In this document: positions 3,471-34,946 of the stretch, piece by piece
How the letters are laid out: each line of letters begins with the position of its first letter
How positions within the stretch are numbered: position 1 is the stretch's first letter
Virus record (IMG/VR): IMGVR_UViG_2541047683_000006
Coordinates: 1-37,959 of that record
Origin: a virus
Lineage: Duplodnaviria; Heunggongvirae; Uroviricota; Caudoviricetes
Length of the DNA: 37,959 nucleotides
Direction: 5' to 3' (one strand)
The notes under the pieces: model-generated
What the model saw: only the letters and a program-made list of their open reading frames with translations
Databases searched by the model: none
What the model was told of the DNA's origin: nothing
Translations under genes and position numbers: made by a program

Positions 3471-4295
3471 TCAGGCGGTGAAAGTACCAATAAAGGTTTC
3501 TACTTTGCTGTCTTTGAATTTCTCAACAAGCAGATCACGAAATTCGTTAGCCATTTCTTCCTGCACTGCTTCCAGCTGAATAATGCGCAGAACCAGTACA
3601 GGACGATCGCCAGTGATAATGCTGAGGCGTAATTTAAATGGACGTTCTTTCAGACCTTCAAACGGAACGCATTTAAATTCAAATGCCACTGGCATAATAT
3701 CTTTGGTCTTCGCTTCGACAGACTCCATCAGGGAGCGTTTGCCGCTGAAGTCATTATCTTCAAAATCAGCGGTCTGGTTTGCTTCAATCGTGATTTTACG
3801 GACAGCCGCAGCCGATTTTGTTGCCTGAATAGCGTCACCATTAGCATCAAAGCCCACAAGGTAGTCGGCCCAGTCTTCAATCCATTCTGCCAGTGACTTC
3901 TGGGAGTTACGCTCGCCATTAACAGACAACAGAGCAGAGAACGGTGCTGTCTTTTTCAGTTTGAGAGTGGCGGTGTTATCTGCGTGACCTGGTTCATCAA
4001 TAGTACCCAGGTTAATCACACTGACGGCTCGCATATTATCGGCATCGATAAAGCAGCGGGTGCCTTCATCTGCAAGATCTTTAGAATAACGGGTAAAGTC
4101 ATCGATGCTGGCAGTGGAAAGCGCACCACGGAAACGGAAGCGATTTAAATTAAATTTCTCCAGATCATGAATGCGGAAATTCTCAGGCAATGCCACAGCA
4201 TCGGCACCAATCTTACTGATAATTTCATTAACACCCTGAGCAGAAATAAGGGCATGGATTTGATTAATTGCGGTTGCGTCTAAGTTCTGAGACAT
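3471..4295 (-). CDS. YfdQ-like protein (DUF2303 family)
   Basis: 274 aa; overall resemblance to E. coli CPS-53 prophage YfdQ as recalled, and adjacency to YfdP-like and YfdR-like genes; SD GAGGA upstream. Confidence 0.5.
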
Positions 4296-4360
4296 AATAA
4301 GTCCTCACTATATAAAGATATTCAGTGATGAGATAAATAATCGGTTAATTAAGAACGATA

Positions 4361-4723
4361 TTAATGACCTGCTGCGCGGAGTTTTCCGTCAGGTTCACCG
4401 GCAAGAGTCAGTAATTGTCCCTGGTCTTCCTGCAGAATAGTCAGGCGGCCACCGCGATTGACATACATCGGCGTTTCGGTGGTGTCTTCTTCGGAAATTT
4501 TCCCGCGGTTAGTCGGGCGAACATATGAGAGTTTGTGTTTGATTTTCACACGGTTCTCATCAAATGGTTCGATTTCCAGGTTGAGCGAGACCTTACCTTT
4601 GGTTTTCGTGTTCATCACACCGGAAGCGACTTCACTGAGAACTGCGCCGATTTTGGTTTCAAATACGCCGCCGTCCAGCTCCCCGATAAATGCCTGCACA
4701 TCAGTACTGCGTTCGCTAGCCAT
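4361..4723 (-). CDS. YfdP-like hypothetical protein (120 aa), first gene of the PL operon
   Basis: Internal ATG (MASERSTDV...) of track ORF 4361..5041 with SD GAGGAG upstream; the track extension upstream is GC-rich and low-complexity, so treated as non-coding leader. Confidence 0.45.
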   Translation of the reverse strand: MASERSTDVQAFIGELDGGVFETKIGAVLSEVASGVMNTKTKGKVSLNLEIEPFDENRVKIKHKLSYVRPTNRGKISEEDTTETPMYVNRGGRLTILQEDQGQLLTLAGEPDGKLRAAGH

Positions 4724-4771
4724 TTTGCTGCTCCTCATCATATCGACCCTGCAAGGTCGGTTGGTTTCTCC

Positions 4772-4860
4772 ACAAAACAGAGAAGAACACCTGCGGTGGC
4801 AGCCGCCCGGATGGATTGGGTTATGAGCCCGTCGTCCGGTGATGCTCTTCTCTGTTTTGT
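4772..4860. repeat. 15-bp perfect inverted repeat (acaaaacagagaaga / tcttctctgttttgt) with a 59-nt spacer, inside the PL leader
   Basis: Seen directly at 4772-4786 and 4846-4860; a second 10-bp inverted repeat gcggtaccag/ctggtaccgc lies at 4868-4877 and 4897-4906. Confidence 0.7.
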
Positions 4861-5062
4861 AAAAAGAGCGGTACCAGCCGGAAGCAAGTGTACAAACTGG
4901 TACCGCCAGGACTACACACAGCATAAAGTTGTGGTGCCGGGTGCCTCCCGGTGCCTGGCGAAGGTTGCACACCAGGCGGGTGGGTATCCACAGAAGGTCG
5001 ACTGTCAGCCTCAACCTTAACCCGCGTGCGCTGAGCCGCATTCACCACAACTCTAAAAACAA

Positions 5063-5115
5063 ATGTAGGATATCCAACATGTGAGTGTCAAGAGTTTATG
5101 TTGGTTATCCTACAT
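5063..5115 (-). promoter_or_regulatory. PL-like leftward early promoter with two operator palindromes (OL1 5063-5080, OL2 5098-5115)
   Basis: ATGTAGGATATCCAACAT and ATGTTGGTTATCCTACAT are the same palindrome seen three times at OR; minus-strand TTGACA (plus 5086-5091) with a -10-like TACATT overlapping OL1. Confidence 0.55.
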
Positions 5116-25203: not shown

Positions 25204-27105
25204 ATGGCTGATAATTTTCAGCTGAAAGCCATCATCACCGCCGTTGACAGGCTATCCGGCCCGCTTAAAGGTATGCAGCGTCAGCTTAAGGGGTTTCAGA
25301 AAGAAGTCTCCAGCCTTGCTCTGGGCGCTGCCGGGGCGGGTACTGCAATAATGGGGGCACTGGCACTCCCTGTAAAATCAGCCATCACCCTTGAATCGAA
25401 GATGGCTGATGTCCGCAAAGTGGTGGACGGTCTGGATACGCCGGATGCGTTTAAGGCCATGACGGAGCAGGTACGCGCTTTGTCTACTGAGCTTCCCATG
25501 TCTGCAGACGGGATCGCGGAAATTGTGGCGGCTGGCGGTCAGGCCGGGATTGCACGTGATGAACTGATGCAGTTTGCCACTGATGCGGTGAAGATGGGCG
25601 TGGCCTTTGATACCACGGCTGAAGAGTCCGGGCAGATGATGGCCCAGTGGCGTACTGCGTTTAATATGACGCAGGATGAAGTGGCCGGGCTGGCTGACAA
25701 AATCAACTACCTTGGTAATACCGGCCCGGCGAATGCGAAGAAAATCTCCGATATTGTTACGCGTATTGGTCCTTTAGGTGGTGTTGCAGGTGTGGCTTCC
25801 GGCGAAATCGCGGCAATGGGGGCAACCATTGCCGGGATGGGCGTGGAGTCAGAAATTGCCGCCACAGGGATCAAGAACTTCATGCTTTCCCTGACCGCGG
25901 GAAATTCCGCGACAAAATCGCAGAAACAGGCATTACGTTTTCTGCGGATCAATCCGAAGAAATTAGCTGCTGATATGCAGAAAGATGCCCGGGGAACCAT
26001 GCTGTCTGTACTGGATGCGATGGCTAAAGTGCCTAAAGAAAAACAGGCAGCTGTGCTGAATGCCCTGTTCGGGAAAGAGTCTCTGGGCGCGATAGCACCT
26101 CTGCTGACTAACCTTGATTTGTTGCGTACCAACTTCAGGCGGGTTGCGGATTCCCAGCAGTATGGCAGTTCGATGCAGAAGGAATATGCTTCGAGGGCAG
26201 CGACGACGGAAAACCAGCTTTTACTTCTGCAAAATCAACTTGATGCCATTTCTTCCACTCTGGGGGAAACGTTTCTTCCTGAGGTTAATGATGGTCTTGA
26301 AGCGGTAAAACCGCTCCTTGAGGAAGTGAGAACGTTTGTCCGTGAAAACCCGGAGCTCGTTAAGACCATTGCTAAAATCGGTCTGGCTTTACTGACAGTG
26401 GGAGCCGCTGCAGGCTCTTTGTCCAGAATCATGAAAGTTCTCGGCGGAGTGATGAATATGACGCCTGCTAAGGGGCTGATTGCTCTTCTGGTTGGTGGCG
26501 CTTACCTCATTATTGATAATTGGGAAACCGTAGGTCCTGTCATAAAAAAAGTCTGGCACGTGGTGGATGAAACGGCGCAGGCGATGGGGGGATGGGAAAC
26601 TGTTCTGAAAGCGATTGCCCTGTTTATGGCAACCAAATGGGTTGCTGACGTTACCAAATCCATTACCGCAGTGACCAGAGAGATGCGTACGCTGGGGAAG
26701 GTATCGGCAGAAACGGGATTGATGGGGAAAGGCCGCGGCTTTATCGGGAAGGCCGGGGTATATGGTTTTCTGGGAACCCTGATGTATGAGCCGGTTAAAG
26801 ATACTCTGGAAAGTGTTGTTCCTGAAGATACGGTTAACTGGCTGGATAATAAAGGGCTGTTTCTGGCTTCAGACTGGACGCCTTTTTTTGATCGTAAAGA
26901 GTACGAGCAGTATCAGGCCAGCCTGAGTCAGTACAAACCCAATGTTCCGCTGTTGAATCCATCTTCTTCCATGACACAGCACAGCGAGCTGAAAGTCACG
27001 TTCGAGAATGCTCCGCCAGGTATGAAGATAATTGATGTACCGGGCAAAGCCGATCCCCTGATGAAAATCACGCACGATGTGGGGTATTCTCCATTCAGAC
27101 GATAA
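25204..27105 (+). CDS. Tail tape measure protein
   Basis: 633 aa, Ala/Gly-rich with predicted helices and hydrophobic segments; follows the chaperone pair. Confidence 0.85.
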   Translation: MADNFQLKAIITAVDRLSGPLKGMQRQLKGFQKEVSSLALGAAGAGTAIMGALALPVKSAITLESKMADVRKVVDGLDTPDAFKAMTEQVRALSTELPMSADGIAEIVAAGGQAGIARDELMQFATDAVKMGVAFDTTAEESGQMMAQWRTAFNMTQDEVAGLADKINYLGNTGPANAKKISDIVTRIGPLGGVAGVASGEIAAMGATIAGMGVESEIAATGIKNFMLSLTAGNSATKSQKQALRFLRINPKKLAADMQKDARGTMLSVLDAMAKVPKEKQAAVLNALFGKESLGAIAPLLTNLDLLRTNFRRVADSQQYGSSMQKEYASRAATTENQLLLLQNQLDAISSTLGETFLPEVNDGLEAVKPLLEEVRTFVRENPELVKTIAKIGLALLTVGAAAGSLSRIMKVLGGVMNMTPAKGLIALLVGGAYLIIDNWETVGPVIKKVWHVVDETAQAMGGWETVLKAIALFMATKWVADVTKSITAVTREMRTLGKVSAETGLMGKGRGFIGKAGVYGFLGTLMYEPVKDTLESVVPEDTVNWLDNKGLFLASDWTPFFDRKEYEQYQASLSQYKPNVPLLNPSSSMTQHSELKVTFENAPPGMKIIDVPGKADPLMKITHDVGYSPFRR

Positions 27106-27169
27106 TATAACTACTTTAATCAAGTAGGGTTATTGAGTGGTAAAGTTTGTGCTGAATGTAGGAGAGAAT

Positions 27170-27658
27170 ATGAAGAAAATGTTTATATTGTTGTTGGCTG
27201 TAGGACTGCCATTAAACTCCTTTGCGAAGCCAGTAACGGAAAAGCAGCTTGCTACATACTTTATAGATAACGTTAAAACTTCAGCGGATAAGAATATAGA
27301 TCTAGATGTAGAGGGAATAAATAGACTGTCTGTAATATGCCCAGCAAAGTCGGCAAGTGGAACTCTTTTAATAAAAAAAGCATCCTACGAGTTTAATAAA
27401 AGCATTGGTGCTTTTGATTTTGAAAATAACTCACAATCTGCACCATTGACTTTTATTGTACCAATTAGTGAGGATGAAAATAACTTTGACTCGGAAATTA
27501 TTGGTTTCTCTTTTGCATTTAAAATGCCAAGAGGGCAATTCTTTGTTGATGTTACGAAAACAGGGAAGGTAAAGGCTGGCGTAAATATTAGTGGTGAAAG
27601 CGGAATTACTTATTCATCATGTAGAATAGATACTCATAATGTTGATTATGATCGTTAA
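27170..27658 (+). CDS. Secreted/periplasmic protein of unknown function (moron inserted in the tail operon)
   Basis: 162 aa from ATG 27170 (SD GGAGAG); signal peptide MKKMFILLLAVGLPLNSFA with no lipobox Cys; strongly AT-rich block; own terminator downstream. Confidence 0.5.
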   Translation: MKKMFILLLAVGLPLNSFAKPVTEKQLATYFIDNVKTSADKNIDLDVEGINRLSVICPAKSASGTLLIKKASYEFNKSIGAFDFENNSQSAPLTFIVPISEDENNFDSEIIGFSFAFKMPRGQFFVDVTKTGKVKAGVNISGESGITYSSCRIDTHNVDYDR

Positions 27659-27674
27659 TTTTATTACCTAATAA

Positions 27675-27699
27675 AAAACCGCGTTTACACGCGGTTTTT
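27675..27699 (+). terminator. Intrinsic terminator after the moron (A-run / ccgcg-tttaca-cgcgg / T-run)
   Basis: Hairpin flanked by A6 and T5; ends 16 nt before the DNA-circulation gene start. Confidence 0.6.
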
Positions 27700-27714
27700 A
27701 TTTGAGGTGACGCC

Positions 27715-29088
27715 ATGGATTTTTCTCATATTTCTTCGTACCTATCCTCTGATTCTCGAAGTGGCTGGCGTGAAAAGCTACTTGAAGCATCATTTCGAGG
27801 TGTGCCGTTTAAGGTTGAAGAAGAAAGTGCGGGAACCGGTCGCCGTGTGGAAACACATGAATACCCGAACCGCGACAAGCCCTATACCGAAGATCTGGGA
27901 AAAGTCACTTTCCGCCCGTCCATCACAGCTTATGTGGTGGGAGATGACTGCTTTGACCAGCGCGATCGCCTGATTGAAGCGCTGAATAAACCCGGTCCCG
28001 GCACGCTTGTCCACCCGACATATGGTGAGCTGAAAGTCTGTGTTGACGGGGAAGTTCGGGTCAGCACATCGAAAAGTGAAGGGCGTATTGTCCGCTTTGA
28101 CCTGAAGTTTGTCGAAGCAGGAGAACTCTCTTACCCCACATCAGGTGCGGCGACGGCGCAGACGCTGATGTCATCCTGTTCTGCACTGGATGACTGCATC
28201 AGTGACAGCTTCAGCGGTTTCAGTATCGATGGTGTGGCGGATTTCGTGCAGAACGACGTTATCGGTAATGCCAGCATAATGCTGGGGTATGTTTCTGATG
28301 CGATGAAAGTGGTGGATTCTGCCGTATCGGATGCCGCCAGGCTGTTGCAGGGGGATATCTCGGTACTTCTGCCGCCGCCATCGTCAGGCAAAAATTTCGT
28401 TGAGCAGGTGCAGAAAATGTGGCGTACCGGGAAACGCCTTTATGGTAACGCCAGCGACCTGGTCACCATGATCAAAACGCTTTCCGGTGTCAGCCTCGGC
28501 AGCGATCTGCAACCGCGCGGCGTCTGGAAAACGGACAGCAAAACCACCGCCACGGCGACGCAGCAGCGTAACGTGGTTGCCAGCACCCTTCGTACGACCG
28601 CAATCAGCGAAGCGGCGTATGCCGTCACCCGATTGCCTGCGCCAACAACTTCCGCGGTGATGCAGAATTCCGCAGTGGGGCAGGCAACAACACCTGCGCA
28701 GAGCACTGGCTGGCCTTCCGTCACGCATCCGGCACTGAACAATGCACCGGCGGTGAAAAACACGGTTGACCTGCCAACGTGGGAAGAACTGACCGACATT
28801 CGCGACACACTGAATACGGCAATTGATAAGGAGTTGTCCCGTACAACCAGTGATGCGCTGTTTCTGGCGCTGCGCCGGGTGAAAGCAGATCTGAATGCGG
28901 ATATCAACACGCGCCTTGAACAGTCTGCACGGATCATTCAGCGCACGCCGGATGAGGTTTTACCCGCGCTGGTGCTGGCGGCGACCTGGTTTGATAACGC
29001 GGCGCGTGACGCGGACATTATCCGGCGTAATGCCATTACGCATCCCGGCTTTGTGCCGGTGATCCCTCTGAAGGTGCCAGTGCAATGA
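27715..29088 (+). CDS. DNA circulation protein (Mu gp43/N-like)
   Basis: 457 aa; N-terminal region (LLEASFRGVPFKVEEESAGTGRRVETHEYPNRDKPYTEDLG) resembles the Mu DNA-circulation protein as recalled; position after the tape-measure gene. Confidence 0.75.
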   Translation: MDFSHISSYLSSDSRSGWREKLLEASFRGVPFKVEEESAGTGRRVETHEYPNRDKPYTEDLGKVTFRPSITAYVVGDDCFDQRDRLIEALNKPGPGTLVHPTYGELKVCVDGEVRVSTSKSEGRIVRFDLKFVEAGELSYPTSGAATAQTLMSSCSALDDCISDSFSGFSIDGVADFVQNDVIGNASIMLGYVSDAMKVVDSAVSDAARLLQGDISVLLPPPSSGKNFVEQVQKMWRTGKRLYGNASDLVTMIKTLSGVSLGSDLQPRGVWKTDSKTTATATQQRNVVASTLRTTAISEAAYAVTRLPAPTTSAVMQNSAVGQATTPAQSTGWPSVTHPALNNAPAVKNTVDLPTWEELTDIRDTLNTAIDKELSRTTSDALFLALRRVKADLNADINTRLEQSARIIQRTPDEVLPALVLAATWFDNAARDADIIRRNAITHPGFVPVIPLKVPVQ

Positions 29089-32760: not shown

Positions 32761-34689
32761 ATGCATCGTATAGACACGAAAACCGCGCAGAAGGATAAGT
32801 TCGGCGCGGGTAAGAACGGTTTTACCCGTGGTAACCCCCAGACCGGCACACCTGCCACCGATCTGGATGATGACTACTTTGACATGTTGCAGGAAGAACT
32901 TTGTAGCGTGGTGGAGGCCTCCGGTGCCAGCCTGGAGAAGGAGCGGCACGACCAGTTGCTTACCGCGCTTCGTGCGCTGCTGTTAAGCCGCAAGAATCCG
33001 TTTGGTGATATCAAATCGGACGGCACAGTACCAACGGCTCTCGAAAACCTTGGATTTACAGACCCGGATGACGGGGATTCCCTGGTAGCAGTTAAACAGG
33101 ACCTGGAGAATGCTGTTATCCGAAATCAGCACGACAAAAACGCAGAGATTATTAGTGTGAGGGATTTTGGGGCTATCGGTGACGGTATTGCTGACGACAC
33201 TGCGGCGATACAGCGGGCAATTGACTCGGTTCCGGCAGGATCGCGACTGGGATTCTGGAGAGGAAAGTATTTGTTCGACACTGTAACGTTGTCAAAACCC
33301 ATTGTTCTGGTGGGAGATGCAGACCTGGTTCACAACGGATTCGTTATAAAATCAAGTAATATAACATCGTTATTAACGGGCATGCAGACCTGTCGTGAAT
33401 ACCATCATTCAGCCAGGGCGTTTTCGTGTAATGCCCACCAGGACTTATCTGACTACAAAAATATAAAAATCCTGTTCAACAAGTTTGCGGGTTTTTTCTA
33501 CGCAACTGATATAACAGCCAGGGATTACGATGCGATGTCTGACAATCCGGATAATCGAGTTGTCAGTGATACCCTGATACTTGGTTGTACGTCAGTAGCC
33601 CCTGAGGGTGTAAACGCCGGGCACTTTCAGCATATAGGGGTAACCAACGCAAAGTGCGTCGGCAATTCAACGCACGGAGGGAAAAACGCGACCTCATACA
33701 ATTTTATCAACGGGAACGGATATCTGATTGTTCAGGGTAATTACGATTACGGAAATACTTATGGCTCCTGTGAGGTTGAAAACGATTCCAGTAATACAGT
33801 AATTTCCGGGAACGCATTCAGGGGCAAAATCTGGATTGATGACAGCAGCAACGTCACTGTCAGCGGAAACACCGTTGACGACGAAATTTTGATTACGTCC
33901 CAGACTGACGATGTGCGAAACGTTCTGGTTGCAGGGAATACGGCCAAACGAATAGTCGTTCAGCAATTTGGAGACGAACCTGTCGGCTGGGCATACGATT
34001 GTCATATACAGGGAAATCTGACAACGGGTAATCCGGAATACGAACACGATATTCTGTTGTCGTCACTGATTAGCGGAACAGTGGAAAATAATCGCCTGAA
34101 CGGAGAATCGAAATATTCTATTGGTATTATACGTCATCACAATACGGACCTGATAATACGTAACAATACCGGGAAACGAGAAGCCATTATTTCTGGTAGT
34201 GGCGGAAGAATAATCGATTACGCAAATATAGGTTTTAATGTATTTACTCAGTCAGACAGTCGACACGTTTCCACACTATTGACCCCGGTGTCGGATTATC
34301 TTGATTTACCAGGAAAATACTTGCACGGAACTAAATACGCCGGACAACTGATACCAGGCGGGAATACTGTTATTTCGCTATCAGTACCAGATGTAAAAAA
34401 CTTAGTTTTCAGGGGGATATCGCTGTGGGTGCTAATCCGTGACCCTGCAAATAACAATATGTCCAGCTACAGAATTGATGGATTTTTCATGGTTGTAGGT
34501 TCATCCGTGTCAATAAGTTTTGGAGCTCCTTATTCAGTTCTGGGAGTCGATTCTGGATTTGTGACCGTTGCGAACCAGGGAAGCACAACAACAGCTATCA
34601 TGCTGAGCATAACGAATACCCACGAAACGAAAAATCTGCAAGTTACGATGCTGCCAGCAGTTACCAGCAGATTTGGGCTGGACGATTAA
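32761..34689 (+). CDS. Tail fibre/tailspike with conserved N-terminal anchor and pectate-lyase-like right-handed beta-helix domain (putative polysaccharide depolymerase)
   Basis: 642 aa; N-terminus [22 protein letters not shown]...[14 protein letters not shown] is fibre-anchor-like; [22 protein letters not shown] is the canonical pectate-lyase-3 signature; Asn/Gly/Thr-rich repeats; strongly AT-rich 3' two-thirds. Confidence 0.7.
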
Positions 34690-34707
34690 AAATCTGACAA
34701 ATTGACG

Positions 34708-34753
34708 CGCAATTCTGGGCGGAGAGCGCACAACCTGACAGCCCAGAATTGCG
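34708..34753 (+). other. Perfect 13-bp inverted repeat (cgcaattctgggc ... gcccagaattgcg, 20-nt spacer) 19 nt after the tailspike stop
   Basis: Seen directly; could be the late-operon terminator hairpin (weak T-run follows) or a relic recombination site next to the invertase remnant. Confidence 0.5.
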
Positions 34754-34946
34754 TGTTAATTTGCCCAGAAAAAAACGCAAAGTTACAACTGCTCGCGCAC
34801 AGGGACGAACTGGAGGTCGCTGTCCAGAACAATGGGCGCAGGCTGGACGACTAATTGCATCAGGAGTTTCTCGCCAGAAGGTAGCGATCATCTATGATGT
34901 TGGCGTATCGACTTTGTATAAGAAGTTTCCGGTCGGAGATAAATGA
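34749..34946 (+). pseudogene. Remnant of a Gin/Hin/Pin-family serine DNA invertase (C-terminal HTH domain only)
   Basis: Track ORF starts at TTG; GGRCPEQWAQAGRLIASGVSRQKVAIIYDVGVSTLYKKFP matches the C-terminal DNA-binding domain of Gin/Hin as recalled; the ~130-aa catalytic N-terminal domain is absent. Confidence 0.55.

Follow-up and report, generated by a model that had tools for sequence, protein, structure and literature searches.

The virus record IMGVR_UViG_2541047683_000006 (Caudoviricetes), analysed over its whole length of 37,959 nucleotides (nt) and referred to below as the window, carries an SfV-like temperate prophage integrated at dusA; its small terminase is of the P27 type, its head of the HK97 type, its contractile tail of the Mu type and its antiterminator of the Q type. 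At the prophage end DinI, integrase, dusA and pspG follow in this order, in agreement with the dusA prophage assumed in the original prediction. An interval of 609 bp containing an open reading frame (ORF) of 162 amino acids (27170-27658) lies between the tape-measure gene and the DNA-circulation/baseplate-hub gene (hub gene in the following), and this cassette is the subject of the present report (Table 1). It had been described as a moron, namely an AT-rich cassette of about 600 bp with its own Shine-Dalgarno site, a product with a cleavable signal peptide lacking a lipobox, and its own terminator. Morons in the sense of Juhala and Hendrix are recognized by extra DNA, deviant base composition and a promoter and terminator of their own (PMC3594210). 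Base composition is clearly deviant, as the ORF has a GC content of 0.344 (0.264 at third codon positions) whereas the tape-measure and hub genes have 0.517 and 0.555, respectively. The Shine-Dalgarno site and the ORF with its signal peptide were both found as described.

Table 1. Features of the tape-measure/hub junction of the window
Feature	Position	Strand	Basis
Tape-measure gene, left flank of the hotspot	25204-27105	+	Pfam PF10145, E 2.2e-42; PHROG 28
AT-rich leader of the cassette, 64 nt	27106-27169	+	Sequence
Weak extended -10 TGgTAAAGT, sole promoter candidate in the leader	27138-27146	+	Promoter scan
Shine-Dalgarno site AGGAGA	27160-27165	+	5 nt before the ATG
Signal peptide MKKMFILLLAVGLPLNSFA	27170-27226	+	Sequence features; the A/K junction aligns across the family
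Mature protein, 143 amino acids, 15.7 kDa, pI 5.2	27227-27658	+	Stop codon 27656-27658
Intrinsic-terminator-like hairpin and T-run	27674-27703	+	RNA fold
Shine-Dalgarno site GAGGTG of the hub gene	27704-27709	+	Sequence
DNA-circulation/baseplate-hub gene, Mu N homologue, right flank	27715-29088	+	Pfam PF07157, E 1e-33; PHROG 184

The ORF extends from an ATG at 27170 to a TAA stop codon, and its N-terminus reads MKKMFILLLAVGLPLNSFA followed by KPV. An alternative in-frame GTG at 27137 would give 173 amino acids; the ATG was preferred because it is supported by RefSeq and by the Shine-Dalgarno site. The N-terminus has the tripartite organization of a Sec/signal peptidase I signal, with K2 and K3 in the n-region, an h-region of 12 residues (MFILLLAVGLPL, mean Kyte-Doolittle hydropathy 2.68) and a c-region NSFA followed by K, which places S at -3 and A at -1 and predicts cleavage after Ala19. 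The first cysteine is residue 57 and the protein therefore lacks a lipobox. An equivalent N-terminal signal peptide is present in all full-length members of the family. Scans with Rfam and for tRNAs gave no match at the cassette locus.

Comparison with related prophages lacking the insert delimits the extra DNA. In Escherichia coli CX15 the tape-measure and hub genes are 99% identical to those of the window and are separated by a spacer of only 24 nt, and alignment to this empty site assigns approximately 27106-27703 to the insert. The last 5 codons of the tape-measure gene and the first ~23 codons of the hub gene also diverge between the window and CX15, so the segment exchanged extends a little beyond the insert itself. 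The variable, mosaic part of the hub gene covers 27715-27783, and the megablast matches of most relatives begin at 27784-27790. Two forms of the hub N-terminus, both falling within this mosaic segment, were observed: a long one with ~30 residues before the motif ASFRG (window, CX15, L002 and L043) and a short one, MTWKDRLQDASFRG, seen on comparison of the window with L001, L004 and L039.

The insert is an optional component of a common prophage type. In a megablast search with 26600-28300 the flanks were matched in 1,092 of 5,426 complete E. coli genomes (~20%) and the full interval in 100, while the cassette alone was found at ≥95% identity in 101 genomes (~2%) and a ~66%-identical nucleotide form in 11. 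The isolated phages SfV, SfII, SfIV, ST64B and phiP27 have an empty junction, as does an O157:H7 prophage; phage vB_EcoM-720R4 carries an identical copy of the cassette. DNA that is absent at the same place in close relatives is thus present here, and the proposal that the gene is accessory and non-structural is borne out by viable relatives and prophages with near-identical flanks that do without it; it is not a conserved structural component shared by all related phages. Insertions of IS1 within the cassette were found at two independent loci, PEC122 (NZ_CM168021.1) and a locus of the second clade (L033, ~4050-5000), the latter copy also lacking the first ~34 codons of the gene.

Searches of Pfam and NCBIfam retrieved no family for the protein (a Pect-lyase match at E 0.048 lies far below the cut-off of that family), PADLOC gave no match up to E 1 and the sequence search of the PDB no match. 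The only PHROG match was PHROG 5586, end to end at E 2.6e-85, which the 13 aligned relatives also match end to end and whose function is not annotated. The original statement that no family could be recognized holds, then, as far as characterized families are concerned, and has to be amended in that a PHROG exists, which names the family and explains nothing about its function. A word-indexed search of 5.8 billion proteins returned close relatives from E. coli and Shigella only, and a profile searched exhaustively against 1.84 billion cluster representatives retrieved 17 proteins, indicating that the family is very small; one of the 17, a 2363-residue repeat protein (P0025, E 6e-4), was treated as spurious. 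Conserved in the family are two invariant cysteines, Cys57 and Cys151, and the motifs CPxxSASG and FxFKMPxGQFFV. These cysteines, the long motifs and the signal peptide are kept down to 25-30% identity in members from Escherichia, Shigella, Pantoea and unassigned metagenomic contigs, some metagenomic variants having internal deletions.

The structure prediction that had been proposed as a check produced a confident model. AlphaFold2 run on the 13-sequence alignment (predicted local distance difference test score, pLDDT, 87.8; predicted template modelling score, pTM, 0.83) placed a helix at residues 5-22 followed by eight antiparallel strands; a run on 3 sequences (pLDDT 41.6) was discarded in favour of it. 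The predicted fold, a closed meander barrel of eight antiparallel strands with the helix packed on it, would belong to the calycin/avidin/MoaF-like class. Foldseek comparison of the model with the PDB and BFVD gave only generic barrels and no match at E <0.001. Both cysteines adjoin the first and last predicted strands, a position that would fit a periplasmic disulfide closing the barrel.

Homologues with 34-50% identity to the window protein (P0007 of the second E. coli/Shigella clade, P0012, P0013 and P0014) occupy exactly the same junction in SfV-like tail modules whose tape-measure and hub proteins are 46-72% and 53-72% identical, respectively, to those of the window, and they are about as diverged as their own neighbouring tail genes. 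The gene is AT-rich (GC 0.34-0.42) in all five tail-junction lineages examined. A one-off recent insertion is not compatible with this distribution: homologues occupy this position in five or more diverged lineages, and the gene is therefore an old resident that was repeatedly lost or replaced. Another homologue, P0019, lies 3' of a tape-measure gene and a HIRAN-domain gene; on this metagenomic contig (L045:2387-2974) a HIRAN-domain protein of 195 amino acids stands between the tape-measure gene and the family member, an unusual cargo of cytoplasmic DNA-binding type for this site. A secreted protein of 153 amino acids found at the junction in a further lineage (L201) aligned to the family with an hhalign probability of 70.6% (E 3.9e-5) and is probably a remote relative, judging from profile similarity. 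A specific coupling between the protein and its tape-measure neighbour was also considered and is weakly supported, since the family co-occurs with tape-measure proteins that are only 22-72% identical to that of the window.

The most distant members, with 25-30% identity (P0018 from Pantoea, P0020 and P0021), are encoded in phage-plasmid-like elements (L037:1-452, L038:2919-3413 and L044:740-1270), where they adjoin ParA, a cI-like repressor and IncFII RepA and also lie beside MazEF or Gp49/helix-turn-helix (HTH) toxin-antitoxin pairs; these homologues are not AT-rich. No element matching this context was found in the plasmid and phage collections searched, the sole plasmid match being the same prophage inserted in an IncF plasmid. 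This copy, with the cassette at L234:6971-7459 (NZ_CP126947.1), resides in a 205-kb conjugative plasmid of an avian pathogenic E. coli (APEC) O78:H51 strain. To judge from these genomic contexts, the family has moved between tail junction and plasmid-maintenance region, as accessory cargo does.

The junction was then considered independently of the window protein. Junctions were gathered from IMG/VR and E. coli genomes with three diverged hub proteins as probes. The stop codon of the tape-measure gene and the ASFRG motif of the hub protein served as anchor points for each, resulting in 171 distinct sequences. Seventy-one were empty and the remainder contained about 12 cargo types. The family of the window protein accounts for 42 of the 171, a share inflated by those loci that had been collected by way of the family. 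Other cargo includes a secreted protein of 164-170 amino acids (PHROG 8976, 21 junctions), a protein of 176 amino acids with an N-terminal anchor (PHROG 5485, 16 junctions), a 148-amino acid membrane-anchored OB-fold protein encoded on the opposite strand (PF12869, five loci), another opposite-strand protein with two transmembrane segments (n = 4), the secreted protein of 153 amino acids (n = 3), a membrane protein that appears bPH-like as judged by eye only (n = 2), two different lipoproteins, and a membrane protein of 90 amino acids; PHROG 1353 is among the PHROGs represented. The OB-fold protein matches PHROG 8545, annotated as "superinfection exclusion Sie-like" (E 1.5e-49). Loci with cargo other than the family include L004:3392-3886, L006:3246-3923 and, upstream of ~3500 in each case, L074, L101, L201, L207, L209, L230 and L134. 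Cytoplasmic-looking cargo was limited to two types, an ORF of 63 codons (L220) and an HTH-containing insertion (L173), and IS1 accounts for two further junctions.

Approximately 10 of the 12 cargo families have a signal peptide, a lipobox or a transmembrane anchor (binomial p ~2e-4 against an assumed background of 30%), and such a bias toward the cell envelope appears unlikely to have arisen by chance. These data lend support to the original interpretation, as the same site holds other envelope cargo, including one family with a Sie-like label. The C-terminal motif NAPPGM...HDVGY of the tape-measure protein is conserved even between tape-measure proteins that are 22% identical, and the conserved coding ends on both sides may offer a route for cassette exchange by homologous recombination. 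Altogether, the window gene very probably encodes an exported, non-structural accessory protein residing at a cargo hotspot.

In the literature searched nothing was found on the window gene, PHROG 5586, vB_EcoM-720R4 or the tape-measure/hub junction. Exported prophage cargo within a tail operon is already known as a kind; what appears to be new here is the fold confidently predicted for the family, its occurrence, as judged from sequence comparison, at the same junction in several diverged lineages together with its transfer to phage-plasmids, and the recognition of the SfV-like tape-measure/hub junction as a probable hotspot enriched in envelope-targeted cargo.

The gene diverges much faster than its surroundings. 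In the close clade every one of the 35 copies sampled, representing 10 alleles, has an intact ORF, and the ratio of non-synonymous to synonymous divergence (dN/dS) against the window allele, which rests on few substitutions, was 0.6-0.8 (1.9 in one close-clade pair); at comparable dS, the tape-measure gene gave 0.02-0.07 and the hub gene 0.05-0.2. The non-synonymous divergence of the gene is approximately 10 times that of the flanking genes with similar synonymous divergence. This pattern fits an accessory gene that may be under relaxed or diversifying selection.

Regarding the expression signals, the claim of an own terminator goes too far. A strong hairpin follows the gene, with arms of 11 bp at 27674-27684 and 27689-27699, a GC core CCGCGT/ACGCGG, a TTAC loop and a T-run; it folds with -20.4 kcal/mol (z = -4.86) and 0 of 200 shuffled sequences fold as well. 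A simple terminator scanner missed it, probably because A/T pairs lengthen the stem, and the fold energy was used instead. Terminator hairpins stand 3' of the cargo in the window and in L002, L039, L041, L004 and L006. However, terminators are also found at empty junctions of the O157/SfII-type sister lineage (L005:3911-3970 and, in SfII itself, L236:1147-1185, where it was annotated by the depositors), suggesting that the terminator is partly a property of the site and perhaps not of the cassette; the CX15-type empty site has none. In the O157/SfII-type lineage the late tail operon contains an internal terminator with or without cargo.

As for the promoter expected of a moron, no consensus sigma-70 promoter was recognized on the + strand upstream of the window gene or of four other cargo types (five lineages in total) by a scanning tool or by a relaxed version of our own, both being consensus scans and as such insensitive. 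The designation as a moron consequently stands for the extra DNA and the deviant composition and not for the promoter. Lacking a recognizable promoter, the gene is probably transcribed together with the late operon, and co-transcription with the Q-antiterminated late genes is probably the simplest reading of the sequence; for the gene to be expressed in the lysogen, a cryptic promoter would be required. The two cargo families on the opposite strand, conversely, must have promoters of their own.

Several phage proteins offer points of comparison. The gp15 moron of HK97 (Juhala et al., 2000; Cumby et al., 2012, as summarized in PMC3594210) is encoded next to the tape-measure gene within the tail operon and exerts a tail-dependent block of genome entry. 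According to that summary it shares with the window gene an optional presence, a deviant composition, the location in the tail operon next to the tape-measure gene, a terminator and an envelope-directed product. The differences are equally clear: gp15, a relative of YebO, is a small protein of the inner membrane, but the window protein, with 143 amino acids after removal of the signal peptide, is predicted to be a soluble barrel and has no sequence relation to it; gp15 has a recognized promoter and is expressed from the prophage, whereas the window gene has no recognizable one; gp15 is located upstream of the tape-measure gene of a siphovirus, whereas the window gene is downstream of it in a contractile-tail module; and the entry block is established for gp15 and proposed for the window protein.

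Cor (phi80/N15/HK022), Llp (T5) and Ltp (TP-J34) are lipoproteins that act by receptor masking or exclusion (PMC3594210, PMC9586334). Like them, the window protein is phage-encoded and (as predicted here) exported, and its gene is near tail or receptor-binding genes; the three act outside the cytoplasm against further phage entry. Unlike them it has no lipobox, although a homologue of the second clade is possibly a lipoprotein (LTSC), and neither sequence nor fold matches were found between these proteins and the window protein.

Spackle of phage T4, which acts in the periplasm to inhibit the tail lysozyme of superinfecting T4, is helical, in contrast to the barrel predicted here.

At the level of the site, the junction resembles the P2/P4 hotspots for cargo and defence genes of temperate phages (Rousset et al., 2022, as cited in PMC10884400) in its fixed position between conserved phage genes, in the alternation of unrelated accessory genes and in the existence of empty sites. 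As far as that account describes them, it differs from them in lying inside the late tail operon of SfV-like phages and in that the cargo, in the sample examined, consists almost only of single small envelope-targeted proteins and not of cytoplasmic multi-gene defence systems.

Based on the available evidence, the protein is probably a phage-exclusion or host-envelope factor and not a part of the tail. Exclusion of superinfecting phages by an exported accessory protein is ranked first because of the envelope cargo at the site, the precedent of HK97 gp15 and the fast evolution of the gene, and it is put forward tentatively, with a probability somewhat short of even. According to this proposal the mature protein would be exported to the periplasm, where it would bind rather than catalyse and would block the step of envelope penetration or genome delivery of incoming phages. 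The target could be a tail-tip or tape-measure component in transit or a host factor of the periplasm or outer membrane. The conserved ends of the flanking proteins, NAPPGM..HDVGY at the C-terminus of the tape-measure protein and ASFRGVPF at the N-terminus of the hub protein, would allow the recombinational swap of envelope-targeted cargo.

A number of observations weigh against the exclusion proposal. Classical exclusion needs expression in the lysogen, which finds no support in the absence of a recognizable promoter, and one lineage (L043) packs the gene with gaps of 16-17 nt and no terminator, like an ordinary operon member. No similarity to a known exclusion protein was detected in PADLOC, Pfam, NCBIfam or the PDB sequence and fold searches. 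In addition, 12 of the 30 best gene-positive records hold a second junction match, compared with at most 12% of all matching records (clonality uncorrected), and the cassette occurs twice in one genome (GPEC620-622), so that the co-residence of related phages is not obviously prevented. The Sie-like label of the neighbouring cargo family is a database annotation, and the small number of substitutions behind the dN/dS values applies to this argument as well.

A broader version of the exclusion proposal can be formulated, in which the family would represent a new group of soluble periplasmic beta-barrel exclusion factors intercepting the tape-measure or tail-tube conduit of contractile-tailed SfV-like phages during its passage through the periplasm, and the junction would be a dedicated, hitherto undescribed envelope-defence hotspot, each of its ~10 cargo families blocking entry with a specificity of its own. 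Taken with all its parts this version is doubtful, and we would give it roughly one chance in a handful.

Among the alternatives, the one that survives best assigns the protein to the lytic cycle of the phage itself, as a late helper that would be produced only along with the tail genes and exported ahead of lysis, and that would modulate lysis or else, in the manner of T5 Llp, save progeny from being wasted on dying cells and cell debris by masking or inactivating the receptor or entry route there. No promoter was recognized in five lineages, a good Shine-Dalgarno site is placed directly 3' of the tape-measure gene, the gene is tightly packed in L043, and the Q-type antiterminator of the prophage would read through the junction terminator, all of which speaks for this alternative. 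However, the product lacks the lipoprotein character of Llp and Cor and is related to neither, the homologues of the phage-plasmids are located in maintenance regions and are presumably expressed in the carrier state, the two opposite-strand cargo families need their own promoters, and many viable relatives have no cargo at all. A late helper is accordingly regarded as unlikely, if only slightly more so than the broad version just described.

A periplasmic inhibitor or immunity protein directed against exogenous enzymes or toxins that attack the envelope, such as lysozymes, peptidoglycan-hydrolase effectors of the type VI secretion system (T6SS) or colicin-type toxins, which would make it a host-fitness factor instead of an anti-phage one, was judged a little less probable still. 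An exported protein with a conserved cysteine pair and no match to a catalytic family would suit this role, and the SASG of the family recurs as the opening tetrapeptide of the loop SASGARY of E. coli MliC. On the other hand, when the family was aligned by hhalign to E. coli MliC, whose sequence had been verified against 2f09, the match had a probability of 5.8% and covered the signal peptide only, and there is thus no profile similarity to the periplasmic lysozyme inhibitors PliC/MliC, none of the 13 family members matches the Pfam MliC/PliC family (PF09864), and SASG is placed at the first barrel strand near the mature N-terminus here and in the C-terminal half in MliC. Membership in MliC/PliC, as defined by the loops SxSGAxY and YxxxTKG, was rejected, since only the tetrapeptide SASG is shared.

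The predicted eight-stranded barrel with its N-terminal helix and the gut Enterobacteriaceae that host these prophages also bring to mind a calycin-like ligand binder, sequestering a small hydrophobic or cofactor ligand in the periplasm (e.g., a bile acid, lipid, haem or biotin-like compound) to the benefit of the lysogen in its gut habitat. However, the family has no known ligand-binding motif, and such a role leaves a phage-tail hotspot with membrane and Sie-like cargo unexplained; its probability is rated low, below that of the inhibitor.

That the ORF is a decaying, functionless stretch of AT-rich DNA would accord with the dN/dS values of 0.6-0.8 (1.9 in one pair), with IS1 in the cassette and with the internal deletions of some metagenomic variants, yet all 35 sampled copies are intact, signal peptide, cysteines and motifs are conserved to 25-30% identity and a 13-sequence alignment yields a confident predicted fold, making decay very improbable. 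A structural or assembly role in the tail, e.g., as an extra baseplate or tape-measure accessory protein, which could be argued from the position within the tail operon and its maintenance in several lineages, is close to refuted by the cleavable export signal, virions being assembled in the cytoplasm, by the absence of the gene from the viable phages and the prophages with 99%-identical flanks listed above, by the unrelated genes (two families of them on the opposite strand) that take its place, by homologues that lie outside tail modules, and by an evolution of the gene much faster than that of its structural neighbours.

Two further observations concern other parts of the window. The region 33059-34945, which encodes the tail fibre, fibre assembly and an invertase, has no nucleotide alignment to the dusA prophage of TUM9754, elsewhere ~98% identical, in which parts of the tail-fibre/invertase region are annotated as pseudogenes; on the basis of this alignment, 33059-34945 is a further part of the prophage, besides the junction, that is mosaic or variable. 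In the early region, Rfam detected a match to the small RNA STnc100 (RF02076) at 4859-5075 on the - strand, with 47.8 bits against a gathering score of 47.

Exported accessory proteins of prophages decide which phages gain entry to the lysogen and can alter the surface biology of the host. To our knowledge, very few of them have a known mechanism and almost none is a soluble periplasmic protein. A fixed junction in very common prophages of E. coli, Shigella and Salmonella, with approximately 10 interchangeable envelope genes and natural empty-site controls, constitutes a compact test system. If the cargo proteins are entry blockers, the hotspot would represent a ready-made catalogue of envelope-level anti-phage functions, and this would be relevant to the choice of phages for therapy against strains of APEC, enterotoxigenic E. 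coli (ETEC) and extraintestinal pathogenic E. coli (ExPEC) that carry such cargo. If they are not, the site still marks a set of uncharacterized secreted prophage proteins in pathogenic lineages, including ETEC H10407.

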